Below are positions 26,571 through 57,344 of a stretch of 64,000 nucleotides of DNA, one piece after another (position 1 is the stretch's first letter; every line of letters begins with the position of its first letter). The stretch is from Minisyncoccota bacterium (GTDB lineage: Bacteria; Patescibacteriota; Minisyncoccia; Phycocordibacterales; JAACPR01), in NCBI GenBank assembly GCA_041674225.1, contig JBAYWG010000001.1, positions 254,667 to 318,666 on the forward strand. Direction: 5' to 3'. The notes beneath the pieces were generated by a model that worked only from the letters and a program-made list of their open reading frames with translations, was not told the DNA's origin and did not search any database. The position numbers and the translations under genes were made by a program.

Positions 26571-26633
26571 AAATAGTCATAATATATTTGCGGTCCTCGG
26601 TTCACATAACTTCGTTATGCTCCCTGCGGATGC
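26571..26633. repeat. structured intergenic repeat, copy C (inverted orientation)
   Basis: Reverse complement contains CATCCGCAGG-gagcataacgaagttatgtgaa-CCGAGGACC flanked by complementary atatatttgc/gcaaatatat. Confidence 0.6.
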
Positions 26634-26711
26634 AAATATATTGTGATTATTTTGTTTCTAATTTAATTATTTTTATAAACTCAACTCAATTACAATTACT
26701 GCATACAAAAG

Positions 26712-26740
26712 AAAAAAGAGGGGTTTGCACCCCTCTTTGA
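26712..26740 (-). terminator. rho-independent terminator (agaggggt-ttgc-acccctct)
   Basis: 8-bp stem with a T-run on the minus strand, just downstream of the 26744-27121 gene. Confidence 0.6.
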
Positions 26741-26743
26741 AGA

Positions 26744-27121
26744 TTAGAATATTCTACTACCCCAATCTTCATCGTCTTCTGTGAAATCACCAGGAAGGCG
26801 ATATTTCAGCATCACGATGTGGTCATCAGGTTTTGCATCCTCATACGGTCCGCCAACACCTAAAGTGCGGGCGGGTTGAGCATGACTAAAGTCTTCAAGA
26901 ATATCCTCTTGAAGATTCTTCCTACCCTCTCTTTCTGGATCTTCAAAAAGTTCTTGCATACAAGCAAAAGCTTCTTGAAGATTACTTGGTTTACCATCAG
27001 AAGAATCAACTTCATCAGACGGTTCAGAAGGTCCTGGCAGATGTGAATCATCACCCATACCCCAACACTCAAAAAAACTTCTTTGTATAATATTATCCAT
27101 AATAAATAAAGGTTCGTTCAT
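26744..27121 (-). CDS. hypothetical acidic protein (125 aa), GC-elevated
   Basis: ORF with its own terminator; no family recognised. Confidence 0.4.
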   Translation of the reverse strand: MNEPLFIMDNIIQRSFFECWGMGDDSHLPGPSEPSDEVDSSDGKPSNLQEAFACMQELFEDPEREGRKNLQEDILEDFSHAQPARTLGVGGPYEDAKPDDHIVMLKYRLPGDFTEDDEDWGSRIF

Positions 27122-27285
27122 TTATTAAAATACACCTTCCCCACTCAAAATAAAAGTTACCTTATCAACCTTTTAATGTCTTACTTAACCATTATTAATT
27201 TAGCCTTTTATACCTCATTGAGTAAAAACAAAACACACTGTGTGAGTACATTGCGGAGGCCGTTAAGGGCCGAGCATAGTGGCAA

Positions 27286-27318
27286 ACAAAAAAAGAGACA
27301 CAAGTGTCTCTTTTTTTT
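27286..27318 (-). terminator. rho-independent terminator of the rpsF-ssb-rpsR operon (agagacac-aagt-gtgtctct)
   Basis: 8-bp stem flanked by A7 and T8. Confidence 0.6.
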
Positions 27319-27358
27319 GTTTGAACACGTGTACGAATACAGTGTGTTTTGTTTTTAT

Positions 27359-27559
27359 TTATCGAGAAATAAAAGGCATCAACCCAATGAATCTAGCTCT
27401 CTTAATAGCACTCTCAACTTGTCTTTGGTGCTTAGCAGAAAGACCAGTTCTTTTTCGAGAAAGAAGTCGTCCGTTTGGATTAACAAAACGCTTCAAGTGC
27501 TCTAAATCCTTGTAATCGATTGTCTTTATATTTTTTTGATTAAAATAATCATTTGTCAT
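27359..27559 (-). CDS. rpsR: 30S ribosomal protein S18
   Basis: IDYKDLEHLKRFVNPNGRLLSRKRTGLSAKHQRQVESAIKRARFIGLMP. Confidence 0.85.
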   Translation of the reverse strand: MTNDYFNQKNIKTIDYKDLEHLKRFVNPNGRLLSRKRTGLSAKHQRQVESAIKRARFIGLMPFISR

Positions 27560-27604
27560 AGGTTCGAACACTATACACAAACTCTTTAAGTTGTGCAACT
27601 GGCT

Positions 27605-28066
27605 TTAAAAAGGAATATCTTCAGGGTTTATTTCGTCTTGTGGGTACTCGATTTGACCTCCATCATCTTGAGGCATTTCAGCCGAGTTTGATGCAGATGA
27701 ACCTGAGTCGGCTTTTGGAGAATAACCCTCTCCTGCACCTGCTTTTGGCCCAAATTGAACCCTATCTGCAACGATCTCTGTTCGATATTGCTTTTGTCCT
27801 GCTTGGTTGTCCCAACTTCTGGTTTGAATTCTTCCTTCTACCATTACGCTTTGTCCTTTTTTTAAATATTGAGCGGCTGTCTCAGCTGGTCGCCCAAAAA
27901 CTACGATATTATGATAATCTGTTGACTCCTGTTTTGCTCCACTTTGATCCTTCCACACACGATTTGTGGCCAATGAAAATTGGCATACAGAAGTACCATT
28001 TGGTAATGCTTTTTGTTCTGGGTCTCTGGTAAGGTTTCCTACTATTAATGCTTTATTTAAATACAT
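27605..28066 (-). CDS. ssb: single-stranded DNA-binding protein
   Basis: OB-fold MYLNKALIVGNLTRDPE...YHNIVVFGRPAETAAQYLKKGQSVMVEGRIQTRSW and the acidic C-terminal tail ending DIPF. Confidence 0.9.
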   Translation of the reverse strand: MYLNKALIVGNLTRDPEQKALPNGTSVCQFSLATNRVWKDQSGAKQESTDYHNIVVFGRPAETAAQYLKKGQSVMVEGRIQTRSWDNQAGQKQYRTEIVADRVQFGPKAGAGEGYSPKADSGSSASNSAEMPQDDGGQIEYPQDEINPEDIPF

Positions 28067-28142
28067 ACATCTAGTATGTTCGCAGAGTTGTAGGTAGTAG
28101 TCAATCTAGACCTTCATCTAGATTTTAGGTATTTTTTAGAAT

Positions 28143-28682
28143 TTATTTATCTTCTGCAACTAGAGCTTCTATAGCTTCGTCGATTTCTTCTTCAACAACT
28201 TCATCTTCTACAACTTCTTCTACAACATCAGCTTCTACTTCGTCATCTGTAGTTTTTCGTCTCTTTCTTTCATCTGGAGCCTCAGCTTTCTTTGATAGAG
28301 CTTCTGCAATAGTTTCCGCACTAGTGTTAGCGTCTTCTGTAGTTTTTAGAACAACATACCTTAAAATTTCAGCGTTTAAATCTAATTCTTCTTTAATCAA
28401 TTCGATTTGATCTGGAGTGATGTTGAATTTAACCCAACCGAATGAAGCGTTGTTGTATTTTAGGTTTCTAGAGTCAATATTTTTAACCATTGTGTACGCT
28501 AGTGGAATTGTTACAGGAGTAGATTCTGAAACGATTGCCCCACCGTGGTTTGTGATAACTTTTTTAACAGCATCGAAATCTGCTTGAATTTTGTCATCAA
28601 GAGTTGCGATAAGGTTAATACCAAGCTCATAAAGCCGTACTTCATCATTATTCATATTGTCTATTGTTGCGTTTTCTGACAT
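28143..28682 (-). CDS. rpsF: 30S ribosomal protein S6 with long acidic C-terminal extension
   Basis: Gene order rpsF-ssb-rpsR; S6-like core (VRLYELGINLI...FGWVKFNITPDQIELIKEELDLNAEILRYVVLK); the start is uncertain. Confidence 0.6.
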   Translation of the reverse strand: MSENATIDNMNNDEVRLYELGINLIATLDDKIQADFDAVKKVITNHGGAIVSESTPVTIPLAYTMVKNIDSRNLKYNNASFGWVKFNITPDQIELIKEELDLNAEILRYVVLKTTEDANTSAETIAEALSKKAEAPDERKRRKTTDDEVEADVVEEVVEDEVVEEEIDEAIEALVAEDK

Positions 28683-28723
28683 GAGCAAAAGATTAACATA
28701 AAGGCTTACCAGGCGCAAGATTT

Positions 28724-31700
28724 CTAAAGGCTATTTATAAAATTCCTAGTAATCGAACCAAAGTACCCCACCGCAGGAACAATCCCTACAGACATCTGGA
28801 AGTTGGATAGTGCAATCTGAGTTAATCTTCCAAAGAATGTAGTTTCTTGGCCGATTGATCCAGGACCTGATGTTGCAACTGTGAATCCTTGTGTATTTAG
28901 GAATTGTTGAAGTAGTTTCACTTCAGGGTCTTCATCGTTTAGTTCTAAGTCTTTAGTGAAAGTTGGAGTTTCTTCTGTGGTACTTGTATCACTAGAGAAC
29001 CAAGAATTAAATTCTTCTTTCATCTTTGAAATTAGATCTTGTATTTTTGAAGTGTTCTCTGGTTCAGATTGTATTGTTGATTTAAGTTCTGTTAGTAGTG
29101 AGTCTATTATGGTTGAAACAACTGAAGGTGTATCATCAGATGGAGTGTTGTTTGAAGATGAAGAAGAACCTCCTGATCTACTTCTAGATGATGGTGCTCT
29201 GTTTGTTGGTGTTTCTTCAACAGCTTCTTCTTCTTCGACAGTTTCTTCTGCGGCAGCAACCGTAGTGAAGTTCCATGTTGTTGAATCAGAGATTCCTTCA
29301 AAATAGTTTTCATAGTTATCAGAAACAGCAGTGTTTGGAATAATTATATAGTATGAAGTTCCATTAGATAAATCAGACTCTGGATTGATAGTGATTCTAT
29401 CTAGACCAGTTTGTGATATTTCATCTCCTTCAACATCAATTGTTAGAACTGTTGAGTCATCAGATGTTTTTTTGATAAGGATGTTTCCAGTTCCTACAGA
29501 TATAACTGAATTGAAAATCATGACTAGGTTAGAGTCTATTGCTACGTCTGTTGCGTTGTCTAAAGGTGAGAGGGTTTGAATTGGTGGAGGTGTTGTGTCT
29601 ATAAACAAATCTTTATTTGCAGCAAGGTTTGTAGCAGGTGTGAAGTTCACCATTGCATTACCTTCTTGATCAGCAATCGTTCCTGAGATTGAAGATACTG
29701 TCAAATCATCTGATTCATCACCTGCTTGTACAGTATAGTTACATGTTCCAGTGTCTGCGTTTGATACAGTGAATGTACATGTTCTATCTGTTGTTCCAGT
29801 TTCTAGAGTTACAGTTACGTTTCCAGTTGATGTGACAGCTTCAGAGAATGTTACGTCGATGTCGATCACTTCGCCCACTCCGTATGTACCGTCGGCTTTA
29901 GAAGAAGAAACTGAGGTAATTGTTGGTGCTGTGACGTCGTAGCCGAGGGTGGTGGTGTAGATGTATCCATTATAAGCAGGAGCAGCTAATTTGGATCCAT
30001 CATCAGATGAGGCAATATCGTACCAGTTTCTTAAACCTGCATCTGTTTGAGATATCCAAGTTTGACCCGAATCAGCAGAAACGTATAAATATCCATCATA
30101 TACACCGGCCGCAAGTTTAGTACCGTCTGATGATGATGTAATGCCGTACCAACCTCTTGAACCAGATGAGTTTGAGTTTGTAGTCCAAGTCACACCTGAG
30201 TCTGATGAAGTGTAGATGTATCCGTTGGTAACAGTAGCCGCGAGTTTTGTACCGTCTGATGATGATGTGATCCTCCTCCAATTTCTTGAACCAGATGAAT
30301 TTGAGTTTGTAGTCCATGTAGCACCTGAGTCTGATGAAGTGTAGATGTATCCAGGAGTCGAATCAACAGCAGCTAGTTTAGTTCCGTCTGATGATGATGT
30401 GATACCTTGCCAACCTCTTGAACCAGATGAATTTGAGTTTGTAGTCCATGTAGCACCTGAGTCTGATGAAGTGTAGATGTATCCGTTATATGCAGCAGCA
30501 GCGAGTTTTGTACCATCCTCAGATGAAGTGATACTTTGCCAATTTCTTGAACCAGACGAGTTTGATTGTGTACCCCACGTCGCTCCAGAGTCGGTTGAGG
30601 TGTATATGTATCCACTAGCAACAACTGCGGCAAGTTTAGTACCGTCTGATGAAGAAGTTATGCCAGACCAACCTCTTGAACCCGCATCGGTTCGCTCAGT
30701 CCATGTCGCTCCAGAGTCGGTTGAGGTGTATATGTATCCACCACTAACAGTTGCTGCGAGCTTAGTACCATCAGCAGATGAAGCCATTCTGGTCCACGCC
30801 TTATTACCAGAACTTACATGCTGTGTCCAAGTATTTTCACCCACAACAATATCCTTATTAGAAGAAAGATTTGTAAAACCTACAAAAACACTCATTTCGT
30901 TAAAGAAATTATCTGTAATTGTTCCTGATATTGAAGATACTGCTAAATCAGCAGAAACATCACCTTCTTGCACAGTATAATTACATGTTCCAGTTAATGA
31001 ATTTGCCACTGTAAATGTACATGTTCTGTCTGTTGTTCCAGTCTCTAGTGTGACAGTGACGTTTCCTGTTGAAGTTACAGCTTCAGAGAATGTGACATCA
31101 ATATCGATTACTTCTCCCACAGTATAAGTTCCATCAGCTTTATCTGAAGAGATTGAGGCGACTATTGGTTCTACAACATCTTCAAAAACAGAAACTGCTC
31201 CATAAGACATCGCTCCCACTATTTTTGTTCCAGCACCATCTATTGCTATATATGATAGTTGTTCCACATCTTGCATAACACTCCAAATTGAACCTCCATC
31301 TATAGATATATAAGGACTACTAGCATTACCTGCAGCAGCGACTATTCGACCTCCATCAGAAGACATATCAACATCAGTCCAATTTCTTGAACCTGCACCA
31401 GTTTGCTCAGTCCACGTCACTCCAGAGTTGGTTGAAGTGTAGATGTATCCATTACTTACAATAGCAGCAAGTTTTGTTCCATCATCAGATGATGTGATGC
31501 CAGACCAATTTCTTGAACCAGATGAATTTGAGTTTGTAGTCCACGTCTGTCCAGAGTCGGTTGAGGTGTATATGTATCCTCCATAAACAACAGCAGCGAG
31601 CTTAGTACCGTCTGATGATGATGTGATACCTTGCCAATTTCTTAATCCTGAAGAGTCTCCATTTGTATTCCACGACGCTCCTGAGTCTGATGAAGTGTAG

Positions 31701-32170
31701 ATGTATCCACTACCAGAGACTCCAGCGGCGAGCTTGGAACCATCTGCAGATGATGTGATGCTTGACCAATCTCTTGATCCCGAAGAGTCACCATTTGTTC
31801 TCCATGTTGAACCGGAGTCGTCTGATACATGAATCGGTCCACCCTCTATAACACCTGCCATTATATTACCGTCGTCTGAAACAACTACATCAGCCCATAT
31901 TTGTGAACCGGTTGAGATTTGAGTATGGAAAAAGCTATTATCTGTATCTGTATACCAAATTAAACCACTGACCCCATCATTTGAGTTACCAGAAGCAATA
32001 TAAATACGAGGCTCGTTATCTGCTACATCAACCGCAGACCAATATCCTGGATTTGACATATCTGTAACAGTCCAACTAGCTATCACCTTCTCAAATCCAA
32101 CCTTCAAACTAAAAGCCACTATTAAAAGAAAAAATATTGCTTCGATGATTCGTACTTTTTTATTTTGCAT
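28724..32170 (-). CDS. giant cell-surface protein: about 14 BNR/Asp-box repeat modules, two duplicated Ig-like domains, C-terminal PG_binding_1-like domain
   Basis: Signal/TM N-terminus; about 42-aa modules (SSGSRxWxxITSSxDGTKLAA...GYIYTSxDSGATWTTNSN, SxDxGxTW); the module ADGTYxVGEVIDIDVTFSEAVTSTGNVTVTLETGTTDRTCTFTV occurs twice; C-terminus LLQQFLNTQGF...FFGRLTQIALSNFQ...GYFGSITR. Confidence 0.7.
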   Translation of the reverse strand: MQNKKVRIIEAIFFLLIVAFSLKVGFEKVIASWTVTDMSNPGYWSAVDVADNEPRIYIASGNSNDGVSGLIWYTDTDNSFFHTQISTGSQIWADVVVSDDGNIMAGVIEGGPIHVSDDSGSTWRTNGDSSGSRDWSSITSSADGSKLAAGVSGSGYIYTSSDSGASWNTNGDSSGLRNWQGITSSSDGTKLAAVVYGGYIYTSTDSGQTWTTNSNSSGSRNWSGITSSDDGTKLAAIVSNGYIYTSTNSGVTWTEQTGAGSRNWTDVDMSSDGGRIVAAAGNASSPYISIDGGSIWSVMQDVEQLSYIAIDGAGTKIVGAMSYGAVSVFEDVVEPIVASISSDKADGTYTVGEVIDIDVTFSEAVTSTGNVTVTLETGTTDRTCTFTVANSLTGTCNYTVQEGDVSADLAVSSISGTITDNFFNEMSVFVGFTNLSSNKDIVVGENTWTQHVSSGNKAWTRMASSADGTKLAATVSGGYIYTSTDSGATWTERTDAGSRGWSGITSSSDGTKLAAVVASGYIYTSTDSGATWGTQSNSSGSRNWQSITSSEDGTKLAAAAYNGYIYTSSDSGATWTTNSNSSGSRGWQGITSSSDGTKLAAVDSTPGYIYTSSDSGATWTTNSNSSGSRNWRRITSSSDGTKLAATVTNGYIYTSSDSGVTWTTNSNSSGSRGWYGITSSSDGTKLAAGVYDGYLYVSADSGQTWISQTDAGLRNWYDIASSDDGSKLAAPAYNGYIYTTTLGYDVTAPTITSVSSSKADGTYGVGEVIDIDVTFSEAVTSTGNVTVTLETGTTDRTCTFTVSNADTGTCNYTVQAGDESDDLTVSSISGTIADQEGNAMVNFTPATNLAANKDLFIDTTPPPIQTLSPLDNATDVAIDSNLVMIFNSVISVGTGNILIKKTSDDSTVLTIDVEGDEISQTGLDRITINPESDLSNGTSYYIIIPNTAVSDNYENYFEGISDSTTWNFTTVAAAEETVEEEEAVEETPTNRAPSSRSRSGGSSSSSNNTPSDDTPSVVSTIIDSLLTELKSTIQSEPENTSKIQDLISKMKEEFNSWFSSDTSTTEETPTFTKDLELNDEDPEVKLLQQFLNTQGFTVATSGPGSIGQETTFFGRLTQIALSNFQMSVGIVPAVGYFGSITRNFINSL

Positions 32171-32194
32171 TATTTATAATTGTAATTGATTTTA

Positions 32195-33884: not shown

Positions 33885-33893
33885 AAAATAAAA

Positions 33894-35342: not shown

Positions 35343-35345
35343 AAA

Positions 35346-36416: not shown

Positions 36417-36495
36417 TAATTAATATATTATCACTTCTTTTATTAAGAATAAAGTAAAGAAAAAAGCACCCCTGAGTTTAGGAGTGTTTTATAGA

Positions 36496-36948: not shown

Positions 36949-37020
36949 AATTTATTAAGTTCAAATTTATGTGAATATACAATGTTTCAACAAAAACTCA
37001 ACCAAAGAACCAGTCTTTTT

Positions 37021-38406: not shown

Positions 38407-38430
38407 AATCGAAATATTACACTACTTTTA

Positions 38431-40374: not shown

Positions 40375-40430
40375 GATAAAAATTATAACATGCGGGTTTT
40401 ATATTTGATAAAAGAAAAAGTCGCAGGTTT

Positions 40431-41458: not shown

Positions 41459-41459
41459 T

Positions 41460-44960: not shown

Positions 44961-45016
44961 AAATTACAGCATACGATATTTAAGGCTTTGTTTCAATTGT
45001 GAGGGTAAAAGAAAAA

Positions 45017-45041
45017 AGCGCATCCCTATCAGGGATGCGCT
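45017..45041 (-). terminator. rho-independent terminator (agcgcatccct-atc-agggatgcgct)
   Basis: 11-bp stem with a T-run on the minus strand. Confidence 0.65.
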
Positions 45042-45050
45042 TTAAAGACT

Positions 45051-45404: not shown

Positions 45405-45497
45405 AATTTTTTAAGGGGTTCAATTCAAATACAAAATTACAACTAAAAACAATTGCAGTCAACACAGAACTGAAATGATTTTGAAAACATAAGAGAA

Positions 45498-45520
45498 AAG
45501 ACCGACACGGAGTGTCGGTC
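45498..45520 (-). terminator. rho-independent terminator (agaccgacac-gga-gtgtcggtct)
   Basis: 10-bp stem with a T-run on the minus strand. Confidence 0.65.
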
Positions 45521-45536
45521 TTTTATTTTGGACTTA

Positions 45537-45956: not shown

Positions 45957-46034
45957 GTTTATTTTAATTTTGTTTGATTTTAAAGATCTCTAACACTTTT
46001 CAAAATCTATAACAAAACCATCTTTAGTCAACAC

Positions 46035-47750
46035 CTACATCCTCTCCGGCAATCCAATTCCCAAAATTTCCAAACCGTTTTGCAAAACAGTCAGAGTAGC
46101 TTGTGTGATCCCAACTTTGTACGAAGTCCCGATATTTTGTTTATCAATAATTTGTTCAGAAGAATAGAAAGAATTAAATTCACTAGATAATTCTGTGAGG
46201 TATGTGATTAATTTTTGCGGAGCTAGTTCATCATAAGCTTCGGCAACAACTTCTGGAAAACGATTTAATATTTTTTCAATATTTTTCACTTGCCAATCTT
46301 CTGGTTGAGTTCCCCCCACTAAACCAAGTCCTTCATTTTCTGCTTTTCTCAAAATAGATGAAGCTCGCATTGCGGTGTATTGAAGATACGGTCCAGAATC
46401 GCCTTCGAAAGAAAGTGATTTATCAAAATCAAAGATGATATCTTTTCCAATTGATTGTTTTAAAATTGAATATTTTAAAGAACCAAGGGCAACTTTTTCT
46501 AGGACTTGCTCTTTAATTTCCTCTTCATATTCTCTGTCTGCATTTTTTTCAGAAACTTTTGTTCGCACATCCTCAATCAAACTTTCAGCAGAAATTACAT
46601 TACCTGTACGAGAACTCATTTTTCCTGAAGGTAATTTCAACATTCCGTGAGAAATATGTGTTGTCTTCGCTTCTAACTCTGGAAAAATTTCTTGCATCGC
46701 TTTCAAGACCACTTTGAAATAATGCTCTTGCTCATTTGCGGTGATCACAATCGAACGATCGTATGCATAGGTTTCAGCTTTAATTTTTGCCAAACCAAGT
46801 TCTTTTGCTTCGTATGTCGGAAGTCCCATTGAGTTTATGAAAACACGCGTGTGCAGTCCGTGCTTTTCACCTTTATAAACCACAGCTCCATCCCCCATTT
46901 CAAAAATTCCTGTTGGAATATTTTTTTGCACAACATCTTTTCCAAACCCAGCAGTTTCACTTTCAAGAAAATATAAATCAAATTTAGTTCCCAATCTTTT
47001 GTAAACAATTTCAAAAGCCTCCAAGCTCCACTTTCTTCCTTTTTCATAATAAATATTTAACTCATGATTTGATTTTTCAAAAATCATTTTATTAGTCACT
47101 TCAATTTCTTTTTTTGCAGATTCATCCACTTCATATTCATGAGAACCAAAAGAATACGCATTTGAAAGAAAACGTACTTTTATATCTAAAGGATCATCAT
47201 CGTGCGGAAAGCCTGCGCGATTTTGAATCATTCCCCACACAGCCATTGCCACATGCAGACCCACATCACCTTGATAAACAGCTCTCTTCACTTCCGCGCC
47301 GTTCCATTCGGATATTTTGCAAATTGTTTCGCCAATAAAATTACTCATCATGTGTCCAATATGAAGAATCTTAAAAGGATTTGGATCTGTGAATTCGATA
47401 ATAGTTTTTTGATTATTTAAACGATTGTTTCGTCCGTAGTTTTTTCCCTGATTGATTACATCGTGTACTACTTCTTCAAAAAATTTGTCAGACAAATGAA
47501 AATTGATAAACCCAGGTCCAGCCACCTCAACTTTTTTTACTTCAAAATCAAAACTTGCTTCTAGACCTCTCTGCATTTCATTCGCAACTTCAACTGGATT
47601 CTTTCCAAGACTTTTTCCCAGAATCATCGCCACGTTCGTAGAATAATCACCATTTGCCAAATCCGCAGGATGCTCCACTACAAAATCAACCTCAGGCAAC
47701 CCAAGCCCTGTGATTATTTCTTTTATTACGCCCTTTATTTTCTCTTGCAT
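46035..47750 (-). CDS. argS: arginyl-tRNA synthetase
   Basis: ArgRS N-terminal domain (PADLANGDYSTNVAMILGKSLGKNPVEVANEM), class I core, and DALR-type C-terminus. Confidence 0.85.
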   Translation of the reverse strand: MQEKIKGVIKEIITGLGLPEVDFVVEHPADLANGDYSTNVAMILGKSLGKNPVEVANEMQRGLEASFDFEVKKVEVAGPGFINFHLSDKFFEEVVHDVINQGKNYGRNNRLNNQKTIIEFTDPNPFKILHIGHMMSNFIGETICKISEWNGAEVKRAVYQGDVGLHVAMAVWGMIQNRAGFPHDDDPLDIKVRFLSNAYSFGSHEYEVDESAKKEIEVTNKMIFEKSNHELNIYYEKGRKWSLEAFEIVYKRLGTKFDLYFLESETAGFGKDVVQKNIPTGIFEMGDGAVVYKGEKHGLHTRVFINSMGLPTYEAKELGLAKIKAETYAYDRSIVITANEQEHYFKVVLKAMQEIFPELEAKTTHISHGMLKLPSGKMSSRTGNVISAESLIEDVRTKVSEKNADREYEEEIKEQVLEKVALGSLKYSILKQSIGKDIIFDFDKSLSFEGDSGPYLQYTAMRASSILRKAENEGLGLVGGTQPEDWQVKNIEKILNRFPEVVAEAYDELAPQKLITYLTELSSEFNSFYSSEQIIDKQNIGTSYKVGITQATLTVLQNGLEILGIGLPERM

Positions 47751-47773
47751 GATTTTGTTAGTTTAACAGCATT

Positions 47774-48469
47774 TTAGTTTCTATCAATCAGATCATTTAC
47801 CGAATCCAAAACTATTTTATGAATTTCTTCTCGTGTCATCATCTCCCCATCCGGAGCACAAACTACTGTTTTCCAATTAAATTTATCTGCAACATATTTA
47901 TAAGCTTCCGAAGCATTTTTTAAATGATCTAAATCCGCCTCATGAATATCTCTCTTTTCACCTTTTGTATATTCTCTAGAAGATTTCTGATCAACAAGTT
48001 TTTGACCAACTTCTGGAGGAACATAAAGAAATATAACTTCATCTGGTTTTGGTATACCACAGATTTCATATTCGAGTTCATGAAGCCAATCCAAAAATTT
48101 ATCTCGCTCTTCTTGATCTCTTATCTTCCCAGTCTGATGACCCATACTCGCAGAAACATATCTGTTACTCACAATACAAACACCTTCCTCAAGCCATTTA
48201 TACATTTGAGTAGAAACATCAAATCTATCGAGTGCATAAAAAAGTGAAGCTCGTTTTGCACCAACCTCATCTGCTGTTCCATATTCTCCTCTCAAATATT
48301 TTTCAACAAAATGAGATGATGGATTTCCATATTGAGGAAAATCTGTAACAACAACTTGAACTCCTTGAGATTTCAATGCTTCCACAAGTAATTCAGTTTG
48401 AGTTCCTTTTCCAGAACCATCTGTTCCATCAATCACAATAAATTTTCCTTTTTTATTTTTTGTTTCCAT
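47774..48469 (-). CDS. tmk: thymidylate kinase
   Basis: P-loop GKFIVIDGTDGSGKGTQTELL. Confidence 0.85.
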   Translation of the reverse strand: METKNKKGKFIVIDGTDGSGKGTQTELLVEALKSQGVQVVVTDFPQYGNPSSHFVEKYLRGEYGTADEVGAKRASLFYALDRFDVSTQMYKWLEEGVCIVSNRYVSASMGHQTGKIRDQEERDKFLDWLHELEYEICGIPKPDEVIFLYVPPEVGQKLVDQKSSREYTKGEKRDIHEADLDHLKNASEAYKYVADKFNWKTVVCAPDGEMMTREEIHKIVLDSVNDLIDRN

Positions 48470-48472
48470 TTT

Positions 48473-48895
48473 TTATTTCCCAGTACTTCCAAATCCACCC
48501 TCTCCCCGCGTAGTGTCAGAAAGCTCAGCTGATTCTATCAAATTCACTTGTTCAACTTTTTGAATCAGCATTTGTGCGATTTTGTGTCCTGCTTCAAAGT
48601 GATATGTTTCGTCGCTCAAATTTATCATTCCAACTTTTATTTCTCCGCGGTATTCAGAGTCGACCACACCACCAACAGTTTTCAATCCGGACTTATGAGA
48701 CAATCCGCTTTTATCCCAAATCAAACCAACACAGCCTTCAGGAATTTCCATTGCAATACCAGTTGATATTTGAACTCTCTGGTTTGGCTCCACTGAAATA
48801 TTTTCTAAACAAAATAAATCCATACCTGCATCAAATGAATGTGCGTATTGTGGAGCAACAGCATTTTCATTTAATTTTTTAAATTTAATTTGCAT
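48473..48895 (-). CDS. dut: dUTP diphosphatase
   Basis: dUTPase motifs (GLIWDKSGLSHKSGL, VVDSEYRGEI, RGEGGFGSTG). Confidence 0.85.
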   Translation of the reverse strand: MQIKFKKLNENAVAPQYAHSFDAGMDLFCLENISVEPNQRVQISTGIAMEIPEGCVGLIWDKSGLSHKSGLKTVGGVVDSEYRGEIKVGMINLSDETYHFEAGHKIAQMLIQKVEQVNLIESAELSDTTRGEGGFGSTGK

Positions 48896-48907
48896 TTTCT
48901 ATTAAAT

Positions 48908-50080
48908 TTAATTTCGCAAAATTTCGTCAATTCTTTGTGCGATTTCTTCAAAATCTTTTTCTGTTTTTCCGTTTGTAGTTTCAGCCGGAGTTCCAATACG
49001 AATTCCAGATGGATCAGAAGGACTTCTAGTATCATTTGGAATTGTGTTTTTGTTCACAATAATCCCCTCTTTTTCCAATCTATCGCTCGCCTCTTTTCCT
49101 GAAATTCCTTTTCCATCCATCCAAGTATCAACTAAAACTAAATGTGAGTCAGTTCCACCAGAAACAATTCGCCAACCCAAACCGCTCAAAGTATCTGCTA
49201 GAGTCTTCGCATTTTTCACTACTTGCTCTGCGTATTTTTTGAAATCACCTGATTGAGCTTCTTTTAAAGCCACCGCCACACCAGCGATTTGATTCATATG
49301 CGGACCACCTTGAAGCCCTGGGAAAACAGCTTTGTTAATTTTTTCATTTAATTTTCTGTCGTCTTTTTTCGCAAAAATTAAAGCGCTTCGTGGACCTCGT
49401 AGAGTTTTGTGAGTTGTTGTTGTGACAATGTCAGCATACGGAAACGGAGATGAATAAACTCCACCCGCCACAAGCCCTGAAATGTGTGACATATCCACCA
49501 TTAAATACGCACCAACTTTATCTGCAATCTCTCGGAACTTTGCCCAATCAATATTTCTCGGGTACGCAGTGAACCCTGCAACAATAATTTCTGGTTTCGC
49601 ATCAACTGCAATTTTTTCTATTTCTTCAAAATTTAAAAGTTCAGTTTCTTTATCAACTCCGTATTGAATTGATTCATAAAAACTTCCTGTCGCAGAAACT
49701 TTGTGCCCGTGAGTTAAGTGCCCTCCGTGATCAAGTCGCATTCCCATAATTTTTCCTCCTTTTGAAACTAGAGCAAAGTACACAGCCAAGTTTGCAGGTG
49801 AACCAGAAAGAGCTTGAACATTTACTGCCCAATCATTTTCATTTAAACCAAAAGTTTTTAGTGCACGACTTTGTGTTAAAAGTTCTACTTCATCCACGAC
49901 TTCATTTCCTCCGTAGTATCTCGCATTCGGATATCCTTCTGCATATTTGTTATTAAATTTTGAACCCAAAGCTTCTAGAACATCTTCTGAAACATAATTC
50001 TCTGACGCAATTAGATTTATTACACTTCCCTGACGTTCGTTTTCTCTTTTTATTAAATCTGCAATTTCAATATCTTTCAT
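48908..50080 (-). CDS. glyA: serine hydroxymethyltransferase
   Basis: LIASENYVSEDVLEALGS...YAEGYPNARYYGG...TTTHKTLRGPR. Confidence 0.95.
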   Translation of the reverse strand: MKDIEIADLIKRENERQGSVINLIASENYVSEDVLEALGSKFNNKYAEGYPNARYYGGNEVVDEVELLTQSRALKTFGLNENDWAVNVQALSGSPANLAVYFALVSKGGKIMGMRLDHGGHLTHGHKVSATGSFYESIQYGVDKETELLNFEEIEKIAVDAKPEIIVAGFTAYPRNIDWAKFREIADKVGAYLMVDMSHISGLVAGGVYSSPFPYADIVTTTTHKTLRGPRSALIFAKKDDRKLNEKINKAVFPGLQGGPHMNQIAGVAVALKEAQSGDFKKYAEQVVKNAKTLADTLSGLGWRIVSGGTDSHLVLVDTWMDGKGISGKEASDRLEKEGIIVNKNTIPNDTRSPSDPSGIRIGTPAETTNGKTEKDFEEIAQRIDEILRN

Positions 50081-50179
50081 AAAAGTAGTGTTAGTTAAAT
50101 AATTTGGCTGTCGCAGAGTTAAATCATGGTAGTTAATTTATAAATACATTTTAGCAAAAAATGCTATTATGGCTAATAG

Positions 50180-50398
50180 ATGAAGGAGCGTAAATATCAA
50201 TCAGATAGTTCTGTTTTCCCGACATCGGATACAGGGATTCAGAAAGAACCCGAAGTAGAAATCTTAATCTTTTCAGAAAACTCAAGAGAACTAGAGACAT
50301 TTCCATGGTTTTGGTTCAAAGGGTGGGCCTTAATCTCCGATGAATTTATAGTCGAGGAATACAAAGGTATTTCTCATGGAAACGGTCTTCCGAGATGA
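50180..50398 (+). CDS. possible small hypothetical protein (72 aa)
   Basis: ORF only, opposite to its neighbours; followed by the terminator at 50421-50453. Confidence 0.25.
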   Translation: MKERKYQSDSSVFPTSDTGIQKEPEVEILIFSENSRELETFPWFWFKGWALISDEFIVEEYKGISHGNGLPR

Positions 50399-50420
50399 AA
50401 TATTTGGAATTATTTAAAGA

Positions 50421-50453
50421 AAATCAGCCGCGGACAAAGTCCGCGGCTTTTAA
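50421..50453. terminator. terminator hairpin, second copy of the gccgcggac-aaa-gtccgcggc motif
   Basis: Identical 21-nt hairpin to the one at 1899-1919. Confidence 0.6.
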
Positions 50454-50465
50454 CTTTCCATTGAT

Positions 50466-50960
50466 CTATTTAAATTGCTTTCCGACAATATTATCCGGAT
50501 GATTTTTATCGAAAAGAATTTCACTTCCCTCCAACAAATACACATCACGAATACCAGCCGAAATCATTGCATCCCAACAAGGTTCACAGCACCACCAATG
50601 ACCCCATAGATAAATGTCCGCACCTTGAGTGTTTACACCCTTTGCTATGGCATCTTTAATAGCAGACTGCTCTCCATGATTTTTTGGATGACAACCTTCG
50701 CAAAGCTCATAGCCTTGCCCGGTCGGAATACCTTGCTTAATTCGCTCACACTCATTGTTTTCATGAAATGTGCTTCCATTAGCTCCCATCGCGACGACAG
50801 CTCTGTCACGCACAATTACGCTCGCATTAGGCATAACTTTGTCCAAGGAATGATTCTGAGCAAACTCCCGAGCCATTTTAATGAACGGATTATCAGCTGG
50901 AACATACTTGATTTCTCGCCCTTCTGGCAGAAACGGATATTTTATTTCTTTCTTTTCCAT
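50466..50960 (-). CDS. dCMP deaminase / CMP-dCMP-type zinc deaminase
   Basis: HGEQSAI...CCEPCWDAMISAG, the zinc-binding H-x-E and PC-x-x-C motifs. Confidence 0.75.
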   Translation of the reverse strand: MEKKEIKYPFLPEGREIKYVPADNPFIKMAREFAQNHSLDKVMPNASVIVRDRAVVAMGANGSTFHENNECERIKQGIPTGQGYELCEGCHPKNHGEQSAIKDAIAKGVNTQGADIYLWGHWWCCEPCWDAMISAGIRDVYLLEGSEILFDKNHPDNIVGKQFK

Positions 50961-51021
50961 ATATTTCTTAAAGTGTCTATAATGCAGATTATCTTTTAGC
51001 CATTATAATGTAAATACTACC

Positions 51022-51858
51022 ATGACCAAATTCGATCAAATCTATCAAAACCTTTTAAAAGATATTCTTGAAAATGGATACAAAGAATTCTCACAAAGAA
51101 CCGGTCTAGAAACATCAGCAATTCCAGGAATGCATTTCAAAATCAATCCAGAAGAAGATGGCTTCCCTCTTTTAACACTTCGAAAAATTCCAATACGCGG
51201 ACCAGTGGTGGAACAAATTTGGTTTTTATCTGGCGCAAGAAAACCTGCAGACTTTTTAAGAAACCACACAAAGATCTGGGACGCTTTCACAAACCCAAAT
51301 GATGTTGTGACTGTGGCCTATGGATATCGTTGGCGAAAACATTTTGGACGAGATCAAATAAAACTTTTAGTTGAACTTTTAGAAAAAGAACCAAGCTCAA
51401 GACATGGAGTGGTAATAGCTTGGGATCCTGCACAAGACGGACTTTCACTTGTAAAAAAAGCCAACGTTCCCTGCCCTTATACATTTACGATAAATATTAT
51501 CGCAGGCAAACTTCACATGCATAATATTGTGCGTTCAAACGATATGATTCTCGGCGCTCCTTTTGATATTGCAGGATTTTGTTTTCTTCAATACATTCTT
51601 GCTCAAAGACTTGGCGTAAAAGTCGGCACATATTCTCACTCAATTTCAAACGCACATATTTATGAAAATCATTATGACGCAGCGAGAGAAATAATTTCTA
51701 GAACAAATGACCATCCTCTAATTAAATTAACTTTACCTGAAAATTCTTTTGAACGTTCGGAACAAAAAGATGAAACTCTTTTGGAAGAAGTTGTTGCTCA
51801 ACTGGAATCACAATACAATCCAATGCCTGCGATTAAAGGATTAAAAATCGCACTCTAA
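51022..51858 (+). CDS. thyA: thymidylate synthase (ThyA family)
   Basis: GFPLLTLRKIP...EQIWFLSG; YGYRWRKHFG; catalytic Cys in VPCPYTFT (PCH replaced by PCP); SNDMILGAPFDIAGF; HIYENH. Confidence 0.8.
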   Translation: MTKFDQIYQNLLKDILENGYKEFSQRTGLETSAIPGMHFKINPEEDGFPLLTLRKIPIRGPVVEQIWFLSGARKPADFLRNHTKIWDAFTNPNDVVTVAYGYRWRKHFGRDQIKLLVELLEKEPSSRHGVVIAWDPAQDGLSLVKKANVPCPYTFTINIIAGKLHMHNIVRSNDMILGAPFDIAGFCFLQYILAQRLGVKVGTYSHSISNAHIYENHYDAAREIISRTNDHPLIKLTLPENSFERSEQKDETLLEEVVAQLESQYNPMPAIKGLKIAL

Positions 51859-51863
51859 ATAAT

Positions 51864-52361
51864 ATGAAAGTTTTTCTAATAGCAGCCGAAACAAAGGATG
51901 AATTTATTGCAAAATCTGATTCTCAAAATTCTATGGATTGGACAAGCGCAGAAGACAAGAAATTTTTTGTCGAAAAAACAAAATCGGCAGGAACTGTAAT
52001 AATGGGAAGAAAGACTTTTGAAACTTTTGGAAGACCACTTAAAGACCGTCGAAACATTGTGATGAGTCGCCAAGAGATTGAAATCCCAGGAGTCGAAGTA
52101 ACTAAAGAATCACCCGAAGAAATCGTAGCTAGATTAAATTTAGAAGGAGTACAAGAATTAGCAGTATGTGGTGGTGCTGAAATTTATAAGATATTTATGG
52201 AAAAAGGTTTAGTTGATGAAGTATTTGTAACTCAAGAAGATGTCGAATTCGGTGAAGGTGTTCCCTTTTTGAACCCTGAATTGCGTCAAAAAATGAAACT
52301 TGTTTCAAGTACAAACTTGTCGGTAAATACGTTATTATTGGAATATAAAGTTGAAAAATAA
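51864..52361 (+). CDS. folA: dihydrofolate reductase
   Basis: MKVFLIAAETKDEFIA...MDWTSAEDKKFF...TVIMGRKTFE. Confidence 0.8.
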   Translation: MKVFLIAAETKDEFIAKSDSQNSMDWTSAEDKKFFVEKTKSAGTVIMGRKTFETFGRPLKDRRNIVMSRQEIEIPGVEVTKESPEEIVARLNLEGVQELAVCGGAEIYKIFMEKGLVDEVFVTQEDVEFGEGVPFLNPELRQKMKLVSSTNLSVNTLLLEYKVEK

Positions 52362-53013
52362 AATGTCTATCATCACCAAAAAACAAATACTAGAAAAAAT
52401 TAATGCCGGAGAAATTATTTTTGAACCAAGTCTTGATGAATTTCAACTTCAAGCTCACGCAATCGACTTGAGACTTGGTTACACTTTTCTTTTACCAAAG
52501 AGATGGCACCTTACAGAAAAAGGGCGTGAGGCATTAAACATTGATCACTTGAGCGACCAACGCCCTGATTATTTTGATGTAATTGAATTAGAAAAAACTC
52601 AGACTTTTGATTTACTTCCCGGAGAATATGTTCTGGCTTCTACTCTTGAAACAATTGGAATTCCAGATGATTTGATGGCAATCCTCTACCCTCGATCTTC
52701 TACAAACAGAAAAGGTCTTTCTGTAGATCTTACTGGGATTGTAGATTCTGGATACAAAGGACAATTAGCGATTCCTATTCGAAACAATACAGAATCACAA
52801 ATTATTAAACTCTATCCAGGAGAAAGGTTCTGCCAAATTGTTTTCCAAAAATTAGATGAAAAAGCTGAGATTAAAGAAAGTCGTTATCACCAAAAAGATA
52901 TAATCGAAGGATTCATAAAACAAAACTTCAAAAACGCAGACAAAGACCGGACTGAAGCAAATCTTGTTAAGGAAGGAAAAATCCCAGAACTTAAATCTGA
53001 ACATAAAGTTTAG
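52351..53013 (+). CDS. dcd: dCTP deaminase (dUTPase superfamily)
   Basis: Dcd-like pattern with a dUTPase beta-barrel (IGIPDDLMAILYPRSSTNRKGLSVDLTGIVDSGYKGQLAIPI). Confidence 0.75.
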   Translation: MKNKMSIITKKQILEKINAGEIIFEPSLDEFQLQAHAIDLRLGYTFLLPKRWHLTEKGREALNIDHLSDQRPDYFDVIELEKTQTFDLLPGEYVLASTLETIGIPDDLMAILYPRSSTNRKGLSVDLTGIVDSGYKGQLAIPIRNNTESQIIKLYPGERFCQIVFQKLDEKAEIKESRYHQKDIIEGFIKQNFKNADKDRTEANLVKEGKIPELKSEHKV

Positions 53014-53023
53014 AAGAGATTTA

Positions 53024-53108
53024 AATAGATAAAACAAAAAACTGCTTTTGAGAACATCCGCAGGACTGTGTAGCGAAGCTACATTGTCCGAGGACCGTTC
53101 GAAAAAAG
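53024..53108. repeat. structured intergenic repeat, copy A (extended hairpin, bidirectional terminator between dcd and rplK)
   Basis: aaaaactgctttt-GAGAACATCCGCAGG-actgtgtagcgaagctacattgt-CCGAGGACCGTTCG-aaaagcagtttttt; outer and inner stems are self-complementary. Confidence 0.65.
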
Positions 53109-53120
53109 CAGTTTTTTGTT

Positions 53121-53543
53121 TTATTTTATTTCTACACCCATTGAACGAGCAGAACCCTCAATGATTTTCATCGCAGCTTCTACATCATTCGCACTTAGAT
53201 CTTCCATTTTCTCTTCTGCAATTGCTCGCAGTTGGTCTTTTGTAATTGATCCAACTTTCTTTGTAAGATTATTTCCAGAACCACCTTTAAGTCCAGCAGC
53301 TTTCATAACTAGAAAACTTGCTGGTGGTTTTTTGTATTCTAAATCAAAGCTTCGATCTTCGTACACTGTAACAACTGTTGGTACAATGTCTCCCATTCGA
53401 CTTTGTGTATCTGCGTTGAACCGATTGATAAATTCACTGATATTAATACCAGCTTGCCCTAGAGAAGGTCCAAGTGGAGGAGCTGGAACAGCCTTCCCTG
53501 CCGGTACTTGAAGCTTCAATTGTTTCATTATTTTCTTAGCCAT
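53121..53543 (-). CDS. rplK: 50S ribosomal protein L11
   Basis: [21 protein letters not shown]...[14 protein letters not shown]. Confidence 0.9.
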
Positions 53544-53561
53544 AGGTTTATAGAGATTAGC

Positions 53562-54107
53562 TTAAATTTTCTTAACCTGCAAGAAGTCTAGTTCTACAGG
53601 AGTTTCTCGACCAAACATTGATACAAGAACTTTGATTTTTCCACGTTCTTCATCAACTTCTTCAATTTTCCCTTCAAGCTCTTTGAAAGGTCCATCGATG
53701 ACCATAATCATGTCATCAACATCTAGATTCATTGAGTGTTTTGCAGTATCTTTTTGCATTCTACCAAACAACTCATCAACTTCTTTTTGTTCTAGTGGCA
53801 CAGGGTAAACTCCTGAACCAACGAAACCTGTAACACGAGGTGTGTTTCGAACTACAAACCAAGAATCATCCGTTACAATCATATCCACCAAAACATATCC
53901 AGGATAAATTTTTTCTTCTACTTCAACTCTCTTCCCTGCTTTGATTTTAATTTTCTTTTCAGTAGGAACTATCACATTGAAAATCTTTTCTTCCATTCCC
54001 AATGATTCAGTTCGTTGTTTTAAATTTTTAAGAACAGCGTTTTCGTATCCAGCGTAAGTATGAATTGCATACCAGTTTCGGTCTCTAGAAGGTTGTTGTT
54101 TTGCCAT
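53562..54107 (-). CDS. nusG: transcription termination/antitermination factor NusG
   Basis: NGN domain (NWYAIHTYAGYENAV) and a C-terminal KOW domain. Confidence 0.85.
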   Translation of the reverse strand: MAKQQPSRDRNWYAIHTYAGYENAVLKNLKQRTESLGMEEKIFNVIVPTEKKIKIKAGKRVEVEEKIYPGYVLVDMIVTDDSWFVVRNTPRVTGFVGSGVYPVPLEQKEVDELFGRMQKDTAKHSMNLDVDDMIMVIDGPFKELEGKIEEVDEERGKIKVLVSMFGRETPVELDFLQVKKI

Positions 54108-54120
54108 ATGAAATTAATTA

Positions 54121-54324
54121 TTAGACGAATAATTTAACGAAGCTAGTAAACAACCAGTCAAATAGACCTAGGTAAGCAGCTACAAAAAGTGAAATAACAA
54201 TAATCAAACTTGTGTAAACTAAAGTTTGTTTTTTTGTAGGCCAAACAACGTGTTTTAGCTCAGCTGATGTTTCTTTTATATAACGAATGATTCCCATATT
54301 TTTATGTAATTTAAAACGCCCCAA
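54121..54324 (-). CDS. secE: preprotein translocase subunit SecE
   Basis: 67 aa with KETSAELKHVVWPTKKQTLVYTSLIIVISLFVAAYLGLFDWL, a single TM. Confidence 0.8.
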   Translation of the reverse strand: MGRFKLHKNMGIIRYIKETSAELKHVVWPTKKQTLVYTSLIIVISLFVAAYLGLFDWLFTSFVKLFV

Positions 54325-54350
54325 AGGGGCGAACTCCTAGATAATACCGT

Positions 54351-54369
54351 ATTCGGTGGTTGGAGTCAA
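54351..54369 (-). promoter_or_regulatory. candidate sigma70 promoter (TTGACT-17-TATTAT) for secE-nusG-rplK
   Basis: Read on the minus strand, about 30-50 nt upstream of the secE ATG. Confidence 0.4.
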
Positions 54370-54427
54370 ATAAAAAAGAGTGCCGAGTTTTTGGCTCGAC
54401 ACTCTTGTAAGCGAGGGTTTTTAGGAA

Positions 54428-55138
54428 TCACTCGTCAAAGAAACCTATAATGCAAGCACTGGAGTCAGAAGTGTTTTCGAACAGATCTAGACCGAGTCCG
54501 AATACAGCACTCGATTTAGAACCAATACATGGAACTCTATGGAACTCCGCAGCATCTTTCCAAAGTCGATTTTTTTCATCAAGCGACAAGTACCGCGGAC
54601 CGTCCGGCAACATATCCCGTTTTTGTTCGAAGACAAGCGACGCACCTTGCGCACCGGCAAAGAAGGCGTTTTGACTTGCCAAGAATGCTAAGCGTTCTTC
54701 ATTCGTGGTTATACCATCAACAACCTGCTTGAACACACGAACATGAATTTTGTCTCCAGACTTGAGGATCCTTGATGGGTTCGGGAAGTTCCCGTCAATA
54801 ATATTTTCATTGAAATAGAATTTGCTACGGTTCTGCATACCAAATCTTCCGAGTTGAGTTGCGTGTTTATAGTCGAAAGGAACAATGATAATTCCTAGAT
54901 CTACAATCAGTGTAAATCTTTCAATTGGATTGGTAATTACATTTCTAAACTTCTCCAGAAAATCTGGTAGTCGCTTAAATTTGCCACCACCAAACATTTT
55001 CTCCCTATCATTAAATGAGAGCTTGTTAAACCTCTCCAAATGTTCGAGTGTTATCTGCCCATTCCTGAGCTTCTGTAGCATGTCAATTTGCAAACCAGCC
55101 AATTTGGCCGCGTCTGCGCCGATGTGTTTTGTACTCAT
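54428..55138 (-). CDS. hypothetical protein (236 aa)
   Basis: ORF with GC-elevated composition; terminator hairpin at 54375-54402; no family recognised. Confidence 0.5.
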   Translation of the reverse strand: MSTKHIGADAAKLAGLQIDMLQKLRNGQITLEHLERFNKLSFNDREKMFGGGKFKRLPDFLEKFRNVITNPIERFTLIVDLGIIIVPFDYKHATQLGRFGMQNRSKFYFNENIIDGNFPNPSRILKSGDKIHVRVFKQVVDGITTNEERLAFLASQNAFFAGAQGASLVFEQKRDMLPDGPRYLSLDEKNRLWKDAAEFHRVPCIGSKSSAVFGLGLDLFENTSDSSACIIGFFDE

Positions 55139-55257
55139 CGTTTTCCTTTCGTTTTTAGTTTATTTCTTGCACCCATATCAAAGTGCTTTGTCTAAAAACT
55201 ACAACACAAAGAGTTCTTTGTCAATCTGAGATTAAACAACATATAAACCTTAAAAAC

Positions 55258-55342
55258 AAAAAATCTCTGAATTTGAGAACATCCGCAGGGAGCATAACGC
55301 AGTTATGTGAACCGAGGACCGTTCGATAATTCAGAGTTTTTT
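55258..55342. repeat. structured intergenic repeat, copy B
   Basis: aaaaatctctgaattt-GAGAACATCCGCAGG-gagcataacgcagttatgtgaa-CCGAGGACCGTTCG-ataattcagagtttttt; the outer stem is complementary but differs in sequence from copy A. Confidence 0.65.
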
Positions 55343-57333: not shown

Positions 57334-57344
57334 AATATTTTTAA

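Follow-up and report, generated by a model that had tools for sequence, protein, structure and literature searches.

What are the long hairpins that stand between genes of a Minisyncoccota bacterium and share their centres but not their outer stems? The question arose in a stretch of 64,000 nucleotides (nt) of assembly GCA_041674225.1 (contig JBAYWG010000001.1, positions 254,667 to 318,666; hereafter the window, numbered from its first base). A prediction made from the sequence alone had pointed out three intergenic hairpins with a common 30-nt core at 53024-53108, 55258-55342 and 26571-26633, here called copies A, B and C, and the sequence at these three places is as it was described. The hairpins belong to a real family with a conserved core, of which we count 24 distinct copies across the window and its relatives.

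We give about an even chance to the reading that this family is a structured repeat resembling REPINs (hairpins formed by two repetitive extragenic palindromic, or REP, sequences). The inner unit would be copied or converted between hairpin tips and be recognized as a hairpin by a putative protein, and the whole structure would act as a local bidirectional terminator. The original prediction, which had offered a genome-specific terminator, a REP-like element or a protein-recognition site, came close to this reading.

Hairpins of the window

The core pattern CATCCGCAGG-N22/23-CCGAGGACCG is present in three exact copies in the window, where none is expected by chance, and ATCCGCAGG-N15-40-CCGAGGACCG matches exactly three times, at 53056-53097 (+), 55281-55321 (+) and 26591-26631 (-). 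The two-part core pattern gave no match in 100 dinucleotide-preserving shuffles of the window. Matches with one mismatch to a single core half elsewhere in the window lie within coding sequence and were rejected as chance. Throughout, forward denotes the strand reading GAGAACATCCGCAGG...CCGAGGACCGTTCG, and rc its reverse complement. An inverted-repeat census of the window revealed a fourth, diverged copy (D) that had been overlooked beside the three exact ones. Coordinates of all parts are given in Table 1.

Copies A, B and C each fold into one long interrupted hairpin. Folding stability compared with shuffled sequences gave z-scores of -10.7 (-10.65) for A, -7.0 (-7.04) for B, -8.1 for C and -10.95 for D. 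The opposite strands of A, B and C fold about equally well, with similar z-scores. The outer stems had been described as perfectly complementary. This is correct for copy A (21 of 21 bp), but copy B has a 1-nt bulge and the 26-bp arms of copy C contain two transition mismatches; all are longer than had been stated. The apical hairpins of B and C differ by one loop base only. Copy C lies just downstream of efp (+, ends 26543), and the convergent gene near it (26744-27121, -) has an ordinary terminator of its own. Downstream of rpsR (27361-27559, -), where rpsF-ssb-rpsR (S6, SSB and S18) ends, stands copy D. Its centre reads GAGUACAU-UGC-GGA-GGCC..GGCC-GA-GCA and is followed by a terminator-like hairpin and GUGUACGA. 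We read copy D as the design of A, B and C with changed letters and one extra arm.

Architecture and covariation

On the forward strand, all copies share a layout that begins with an outer arm, often followed by GA, and continues with the short helix P1, (C)A or (C)AU, the 3-bp helix P2a, a G-N-A loop and an apical hairpin closed by G-C. The 3' half consists of a G-A loop, P2a', CC (replaced in form 2 by a whole extra hairpin), P1', often GA, and the second outer arm. Form 1 (A, B and C) is a single continuous interrupted hairpin, and form 2 (D) is a three-way junction. The half-sites of the commonest subtype, GA-GAAC-A-UCC-GCA-GG and CC-GA-GGA-CC-GUUC-GA, are inverted, imperfectly complementary and non-identical.

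The first base of P2a is U in each of the 24 copies. Its first pair is U-A in 17 copies and U.C in 7; the second is C-G (17), G-C (5) or U-A (2), and the third C-G (18) or U-A (6). The 5' loop is always G-N-A (GCA in 16, GGA in 7 and GUA in 1), and the 3' loop is GA in all copies but one, which has AA. The first apical pair is invariably G-C, whereas the second varies (G-C 18, C-G 5, A-U 1), and the apical hairpin measures 9 to 28 nt. P1 occurs as GAAC, AAC, GUAC, GAUAC, ACUAC, GCAAC, GGGAC or AAUCAC, each of which pairs with its partner. Below P1, GA/GA flanks the inner unit in 15 of the 24 copies.

Across these copies the conserved element appears to be a short helix of free sequence that carries a fixed asymmetric purine internal loop. 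The 30-nt core first taken for the family signature marks one subtype only, and the part that is invariant family-wide is much shorter. Covariation is found, as had been proposed, in the apical hairpin, and also in the P2a helix beside the internal loop. It does not extend to the outer stems, which are unrelated locus-specific palindromes and give no sign of compensatory evolution. The distance between the halves varies from 9 to 28 nt; such variation speaks for recognition as a folded single strand, not as a site in duplex DNA.

The conservation of unpaired, purine-rich bases (GNA/GA, and GA/GA below P1) would also suit an RNA motif selected by the host, in which a core that binds a protein or RNase at terminator tips in mRNA 3' ends, as a factor-assisted ('TRIT-like') terminator or a stability element, is kept locus by locus and new copies arise only by occasional duplication. 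We consider this possible, though clearly less probable than the REPIN-like reading.

Distribution among relatives

A covariance model of the type I copies (R1) scored these at 61-72 bits and the variants at only about 13 bits; therefore a structure descriptor was used for the search instead. The descriptor is hand-built and can miss variants, such as the copy in L295 with AA for GA (loci outside the window carry the prefix L). It was applied to syntenic regions of relatives that had been collected through EF-P and SIMPL homologues. Scans of public collections required exact patterns, so that diverged members are under-sampled in them.

The 24 copies from exact scans and descriptor search together come from about 360 kb of Candidate Phyla Radiation (CPR) sequence of the Paceibacteria type. 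All are intergenic except one uncertain case, L058b. The density reaches 5 copies in 10 kb (L163), and the descriptor found none in some 20-kb pieces (L159, L172); these densities are minimum values, since some variants escape the descriptor. The exact-core scan of the genome collection gave 4 real loci of 120 (L085, L052, L058 and L073), the remaining matches being chance ones in high-GC genomes, and that of the metagenome collection gave 1 real match of 24 (L135), the others again being due to chance in high-GC DNA. Viral contigs contained no exact-core match, and 120 matches there to a short type II pattern were all chance occurrences in coding sequence. The core is present in at least 10 other genomes or contigs, with unrelated arms. 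The window copies are therefore not the only ones, and the additional homologues among relatives show covariation in P2a and the apical hairpin. None of the 4227 families of Rfam 15 matches in gathering or E-value mode, the only hits being far sub-threshold ones to generic long hairpins and terminator-bearing small RNAs, and the family is not described in the full-text literature or databases that we searched.

The SIMPL protein of the window is 100% identical to P0121, encoded on a 476-kb contig of a Candidatus Paceibacterota MAG, and the best matches of its EF-P bear the labels Pacebacteria or Parcubacteria. One contig, CAZVRT010000001.1 (L085 and L294), is labelled 'uncultured Candidatus Saccharibacteria', but its gene order and a 68%-identical SIMPL protein are common with the Paceibacterota window. 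The label looks doubtful, and the contig looks like a relative of the window genome. Conservation across phyla is unsupported: because L085, with its 68%-identical SIMPL gene and the same synteny, is a relative, we make no cross-phylum claim. The tip of the extra form 2 hairpin is conserved among the GC-rich relatives as CCCTGCAGGG, which contains a PstI-type palindrome. Type I' cores also contain CTGCAG.

Outer arms and probable termination of transcription

The arms, 13 to 30 bp long in the 22 copies compared, are unrelated in sequence between loci. When G.U and A.C were scored symmetrically, 445 of their 453 positions were Watson-Crick pairs, with 4 G.U, 3 A.C and 1 other mismatch. Outer stems that differ yet stay complementary had been presented as the signature of an RNA. 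Such near-perfect Watson-Crick symmetry instead points to the DNA level or to both strands, as would be expected from a DNA-level process or from hairpins formed on both transcripts (bidirectional terminators). Inner units show no G.U excess either (21 forward, 28 reverse), and the lack of such an excess on either strand of arms (4 vs. 3) or inner units counts against an RNA motif selected by the host. In 20 of 22 inner units, folding is more stable on the forward strand than on its complement, which would favour such a motif; this bias probably arises because the energy model favours G.A over U.C mismatches, and it is weak evidence. Five independent short-read contigs with the same EF-P (L148-L152) end 61-68 nt past the efp stop codon, inside the palindromic element, which suggests that palindromic hairpins break short-read assemblies.

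Ordinary terminators of this genome are perfect palindromes composed of AAAACAAAAA, a 7-9-bp GC-rich stem, a 3-5-nt loop and TTTTTGTTTT. Their arms reach 19 bp in the window and 25 bp in relatives. The arms of A to D carry the same AAAACAAAA/TTTTGTTTT tracts as the plain terminators, and the layout of a bidirectional terminator is present, with a stable hairpin, a 5' A-tract and a 3' U-tract on both strands; most copies stand at gene 3' ends. As had been noted for three of them, the window copies occupy places where terminators are expected, all four being at gene 3' ends. Copies A, B and C (C for efp) are the sole structures with hairpin and U-tract after those genes. A simple terminator scanner misses core-bearing hairpins because its loop limit is 8 nt. 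Plain terminators with the near-identical stem-loop AAAAGCCGCCC-TTGC-GGGCGGCTTTT are common to several relatives and may represent an orthologous site or a preferred terminator design.

Position and A/T tracts alone would allow the four window copies to be ordinary intrinsic terminators that resemble each other only through a few recent local duplications. We give this almost no credence, as the cross-genome comparison already contradicts it: the core recurs in other genomes with unrelated arms, and covariation and an invariant internal loop run through the 24 copies. A clear dichotomy also separates plain hairpins, with loops of 3-9 nt, from core-bearing hairpins, with centres of 23-111 nt. 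Several copies lie beyond a gene's own plain terminator, which indicates that the element is more than a terminator.

The order of parts in form 2, with a core hairpin followed in the forward orientation by a terminator-like hairpin and a U-run, recalls an independent small RNA gene with its own forward promoter, whose long stem would be a stalk for RNase III-type processing or a guide-like variable region, as in units of TIGR arrays. The genes flanking B and D run antisense to these copies, hexamers with a weak sigma-70-like character stand directly upstream of C and, by eye, of B, and stem-loop guide arrays with variable palindromic stems are known from CPR bacteria (PMC12045711). We nevertheless hold small RNA genes to be very improbable. 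Promoter-like matches are no commoner than in shuffles, the copies are dispersed singletons and not arrays beside a Tas-type gene, variable unpaired 'spacer' loops are absent, and three arm sequences had no exact match in IMG/VR viral contigs. Moreover, the inner terminator of form 2 would stop transcription before the right arm, so that the outer stem could not form in that RNA, yet it has been kept perfect.

Orthologous sites and proposed copying

Core-bearing and coreless relatives are found at the same sites (Table 1). At the rpsR site, an alignment of about 250 nt of spacer from four genomes has ACATTGCGGAG and CGAGCA as its longest invariant runs; arms, second hairpin and spacer diverge around the invariant core. 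At the rplK site, L293 has a coreless hairpin of 22-24 bp with a UGA-containing loop, and its arms resemble by eye those of the core-bearing hairpin in L294 (aaaattatCTTT vs. aaaattatTCTCT).

Parts are also shared between different sites. Copies B and C have a common 41-nt core with one difference and unrelated arms. L058a and L073 share the inner unit (core and second hairpin) and differ in their arms. The copy at the efp site of L167 is close to the rpsR-site type, including the second hairpin, but its arms are unrelated and its orientation is opposite to that of copy D in L167. At the SIMPL site, copy B and L295 have identical flanks of 15 and 16 nt, between which L295 has a 5-nt spacer and B the 22-nt hairpin that it has in common with its paralogue C. 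Paralogues within a genome thus share apical hairpins that are absent from orthologues. As far as these comparisons go, the inner unit persists long but can be gained, lost, replaced and homogenized among paralogues, and the arms appear to belong to the locus.

Each orthologous site keeps one orientation. Relative to the upstream gene, the forward strand is sense at L163-724 and L163-4732 and antisense at the other 7 of 9 informative sites (rplK, SIMPL, efp, rpsR, recA, L163-2040 and L085), a majority that is not significant. One copy (L163-5888, 5856-5943) lies between divergent genes. The module thus has no fixed orientation relative to flanking transcription, which weakens the argument that the elements bear an RNA signature.

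These observations bear on both sides of selection by the host for an RNA motif. In its favour are the core that stays invariant at the rpsR site of four genomes amid diverging arms, second hairpin and spacer, and the conserved orientation at orthologous sites. Mixed orientation to the upstream gene, the copy in a divergent intergenic region, and copies placed past a gene's own ordinary terminator (L163-2040, L085, and copy C with regard to 26744-27121) do not suit a tag of mRNA 3' ends. Neither do the apical hairpins shared by paralogues only, nor close relatives that lack the element at the same sites.

Proposed mechanism

In the REPIN-like reading, the conserved and copied unit would be the inner module, made of two non-identical inverted half-sites and a variable hairpin spacer, with an optional second hairpin on the 3' side. 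Folded as a single strand, it would form a short helix in which an invariant G-C pair closes an invariant asymmetric loop (5'-G-N-A / 5'-G-A), and a putative protein would most likely recognize the module as this hairpin. The palindromic stem on whose tip the module sits is specific to the locus and carries A- and T-tracts; it would be the local bidirectional intrinsic terminator, and the whole structure may still terminate or insulate transcription from either side. Modules would spread or be replaced between hairpin tips within a genome, by transposition or gene conversion, and could persist long at one site.

Several points weigh against this mechanism. Neither the open reading frames (ORFs) of the window nor the gene tables of the fetched loci, which are genome fragments, showed a transposase, REP-associated tyrosine transposase (RAYT) or integrase, and no insertion or excision polymorphism was found within a species. 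The sole comparison of an empty with an occupied site (L293/L294) can be explained equally by loss of the core through deletion. At orthologous loci the core stays strictly conserved although divergence has reached saturation, and this would fit selection at the level of the host at least as well as selfish spread. The conserved orientation at all orthologous sites, together with the antisense majority, is unexpected under random insertion.

The REPIN-like reading and the host RNA motif are compatible, because REPs are both mobile and functional. A further suggestion, which we regard as doubtful, is that the core serves as a handle for machinery acting on hairpin tips in CPR bacteria, either a structure-targeting mobile element that enters the loops of terminator hairpins by insertion or conversion with no recognizable transposase, or a dedicated RNA-binding factor for a common tag at the 3' ends of many mRNAs in these minimal genomes.

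CPR (Patescibacteria) genomes are small and usually described as repeat-poor. A structured element every 4-16 kb would be a notable share of their intergenic DNA. If the family is mobile, it would be a REPIN-like system of unusual layout in an uncultured lineage, in which a conserved centre and local palindromic flanks point to hairpin tips as targets. If it is selected by the host, it would be a shared 3'-end signal with a putative binding factor. In either case it may serve as a ready marker for terminators and operon ends in Paceibacteria-type genomes.

Comparison with known elements

REPINs come closest: their two inverted halves are conserved, and the spacer between them, which is less so, forms a hairpin and shows compensatory changes (PMC3116915). 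Like REPs and REPINs, the present elements are short imperfect palindromes in many copies, extragenic (with the same uncertain exception), built of conserved inverted halves around a variable hairpin spacer with covarying apical pairs, and placed at gene ends and between convergent genes. They likewise persist long and are inherited vertically. Unlike REPs, they have no 5'-GTAG foot in any subtype (the sole GTAG, in the apical stem of copy A, is not conserved). They are also much shorter, with conserved halves of only about 10-15 nt. The module is nested in a longer, locus-specific perfect palindrome, whereas REPINs have no palindromic flanks, and the optional third hairpin makes a three-way junction. 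No RAYT (Y1, HUH) gene was seen in the window ORFs or in the Pfam tables of the fetched genome fragments.

The TRIT elements of Mycobacterium, a conserved Rho-independent terminator motif of which 147 copies are bidirectional and for which extra machinery was suspected by their authors (PMC3152330), are a precedent for a host RNA motif. They too are hairpins at gene termini, conserved in sequence and structure, largely bidirectional and present in many copies in one lineage. Their sequence is unrelated to that of the present family, and they overlap the stop codon region (position about -8). In the present family the conserved part is the hairpin tip, the stem beside the U-tract is locus-specific, and some copies lie away from gene ends.

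Some mobile elements target hairpins: IS1397 and ISKpn1 insert into REP loops, and class C group II introns insert beside terminators. Small non-coding repeats in intergenic 'safe' sites, possibly with a preference for hairpins or terminators, would also recall miniature inverted-repeat transposable elements (MITEs), and the GA..GA around the inner unit could be a 2-bp duplication, although this is ambiguous. The core is not a MITE terminal repeat, since P1 differs in sequence between subtypes and no terminal inverted repeat is conserved; the conserved part is central, the opposite of the MITE layout. No insertion sequence that could be an autonomous partner was found in the window ORFs or the gene tables of the fetched loci.

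The folded single strand, the basal AAC/GTT stem of some subtypes, the unpaired spacer, the extra-helical bases and the terminal structure of variable length are reminiscent of integron attC sites. The consensus of their R''/R' (RYYYAAC/GTTRRRY) is not matched, as the flanks either read GAGAAC / GTTCGA or have no AAC/GTT (GUAC in type II). The gene tables contain no integrase, and the flanking genes are core housekeeping genes and not cassettes. TIGR arrays of CPR bacteria are tandem and lie beside a Tas gene, and their loops hold spacers of 8-12 nt between box C/D motifs (PMC12045711). The CPR host and the variable but palindromic stems around short conserved motifs are common to both, but the present copies are dispersed and without spacer loops, and the gene tables contain no Tas (Nop-domain) gene.

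Further candidates were rejected by inspection. An L7Ae-type kink-turn would have a 3-nt bulge followed by tandem sheared G.A pairs, but the internal loop here has a 3x2 form (GNA/GA) with 0-1 bulged base, and no bulge adjoins the GA/GA below P1. The junction strands are not conserved as they would be in hammerhead and other small ribozymes, and group II intron domain V was likewise dismissed. GUUCGA derives from P1 and GA and has no closing stem, unlike a tRNA T-loop. A CsrA site was rejected because GGA is not conserved. With the 23S sarcin-ricin loop the family has a single 8-mer in common, GAGGACCG, on which mimicry would have to rest. SRP and Y RNAs are single-copy genes.

Features and neighbouring genes

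Table 1. Coordinates and parts of the hairpin elements, comparison features and orthologous sites
Feature	Position	Strand	Details
Copy A, whole palindrome	53029-53124	+	between dcd (+, ends 53013) and rplK (-, ends 53121)
Copy A arms	53029-53049 / 53104-53124		21 nt, 100% complementary
Copy A 5' side	53050-53062		GA 53050-51; P1 GAAC 53052-55; A 53056; P2a TCC 53057-59; loop GCA 53060-62
Copy A apical hairpin	53063-53089
Copy A 3' side	53090-53102		loop GA 53090-91; P2a' GGA 53092-94; CC 53095-96; P1' GTTC 53097-53100; GA 53101-02
Copy B	55251-55347	+	downstream of SIMPL gene (55361-56167, -), upstream of 54428-55138 (-)
Copy B arms	~55252-55273 / 55328-55347		right arm aattcagag-tttttt; 1-nt bulge
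Copy B inner unit	55275-55326		core flanks (15+14 nt) same as in A; apical hairpin 55288-55313
Copy C	26566-26659	-	type I core without P1; arms directly abut core
Copy D	27223-27357	+	diverged type II, form 2; arms 27223-27241 / 27339-27357
Copy D inner parts	27252-27276; 27282-27322		P1 GUACAU / GUGUAC; core UGC-GGA-GGCC..GGCC-GA-GCA (27252-27276); extra terminator-like hairpin (27282-27322)
Sigma-70-like hexamers upstream of left arm, B	55218-55247	+	TTGTCA-18-TATAAA, forward; by eye
Sigma-70-like hexamers upstream of left arm, C	26695-26666	-	TTGTAA-18-AATAAT, forward; scanner
Ordinary bidirectional terminator, for comparison	1889-1929	.	AAAACAAAAA-GCCGCGGAC-AAA-GTCCGCGGC-TTTTTGTTTT
Further ordinary terminators	16066-16101, 18772-18801, 45015-45043, 45496-45524, 26713-26738
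AAAAGCCGCCC-TTGC-GGGCGGCTTTT terminators	window 18772-18801; L163 2123-2158; L147 2764-2801; L153 3089-3122; L170 2426-2465; L159 2565-2592
CCCTGCAGGG tips	L052 6860-6905; L058 1884-1925, 3640-3700; L073 3109-3150; L135 750-790
Site downstream of rpsR			core, type II form 2: window, L147, L167, L153; plain terminators: L168, L159, L165, L170
Site downstream of efp, with core			window type I; L147 type I'; L167 type II form 2; L168 minimal type I
Site downstream of efp, without core			L153 none (19-nt spacer); L159, L163, L170 plain terminators
recA-efp spacer			L163 type II; L170 type I'; none elsewhere
Site downstream of rplK			core: window and L295 type I, L294 type I'; L293 coreless hairpin
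Site downstream of SIMPL			core: window and L295 type I; L293 plain terminator; L294 coreless 21-bp hairpin

In the gene order around the elements, rplK is present without a following rplA, and rpsR without a following rplI. Beside the efp-site element of L168, a gene at 2228-3235 (-) has a Pfam match to an AcrVA2-like (anti-CRISPR-type) domain.

A 23S rRNA match at 2170-5754 (-) of the window extends over 3585 nt compared with a model of 2925 nt and has AT-rich dips at about 2500-2800 and 3400-3800, which suggests that the gene carries two or more insertions. This region contains no ORF of at least 100 amino acids and no intron family at the Rfam threshold. The 5S gene (1946-2051) adjoins the 23S gene, and there is no 16S gene beside it. 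The region 46035-60908 is a dense cluster of deoxynucleotide metabolism, with the large and small subunits of ribonucleotide reductase, thyA, folA, dcd, dCMP deaminase, serine hydroxymethyltransferase (SHMT), dUTPase and a deoxynucleoside kinase (dNK)/thymidylate kinase.

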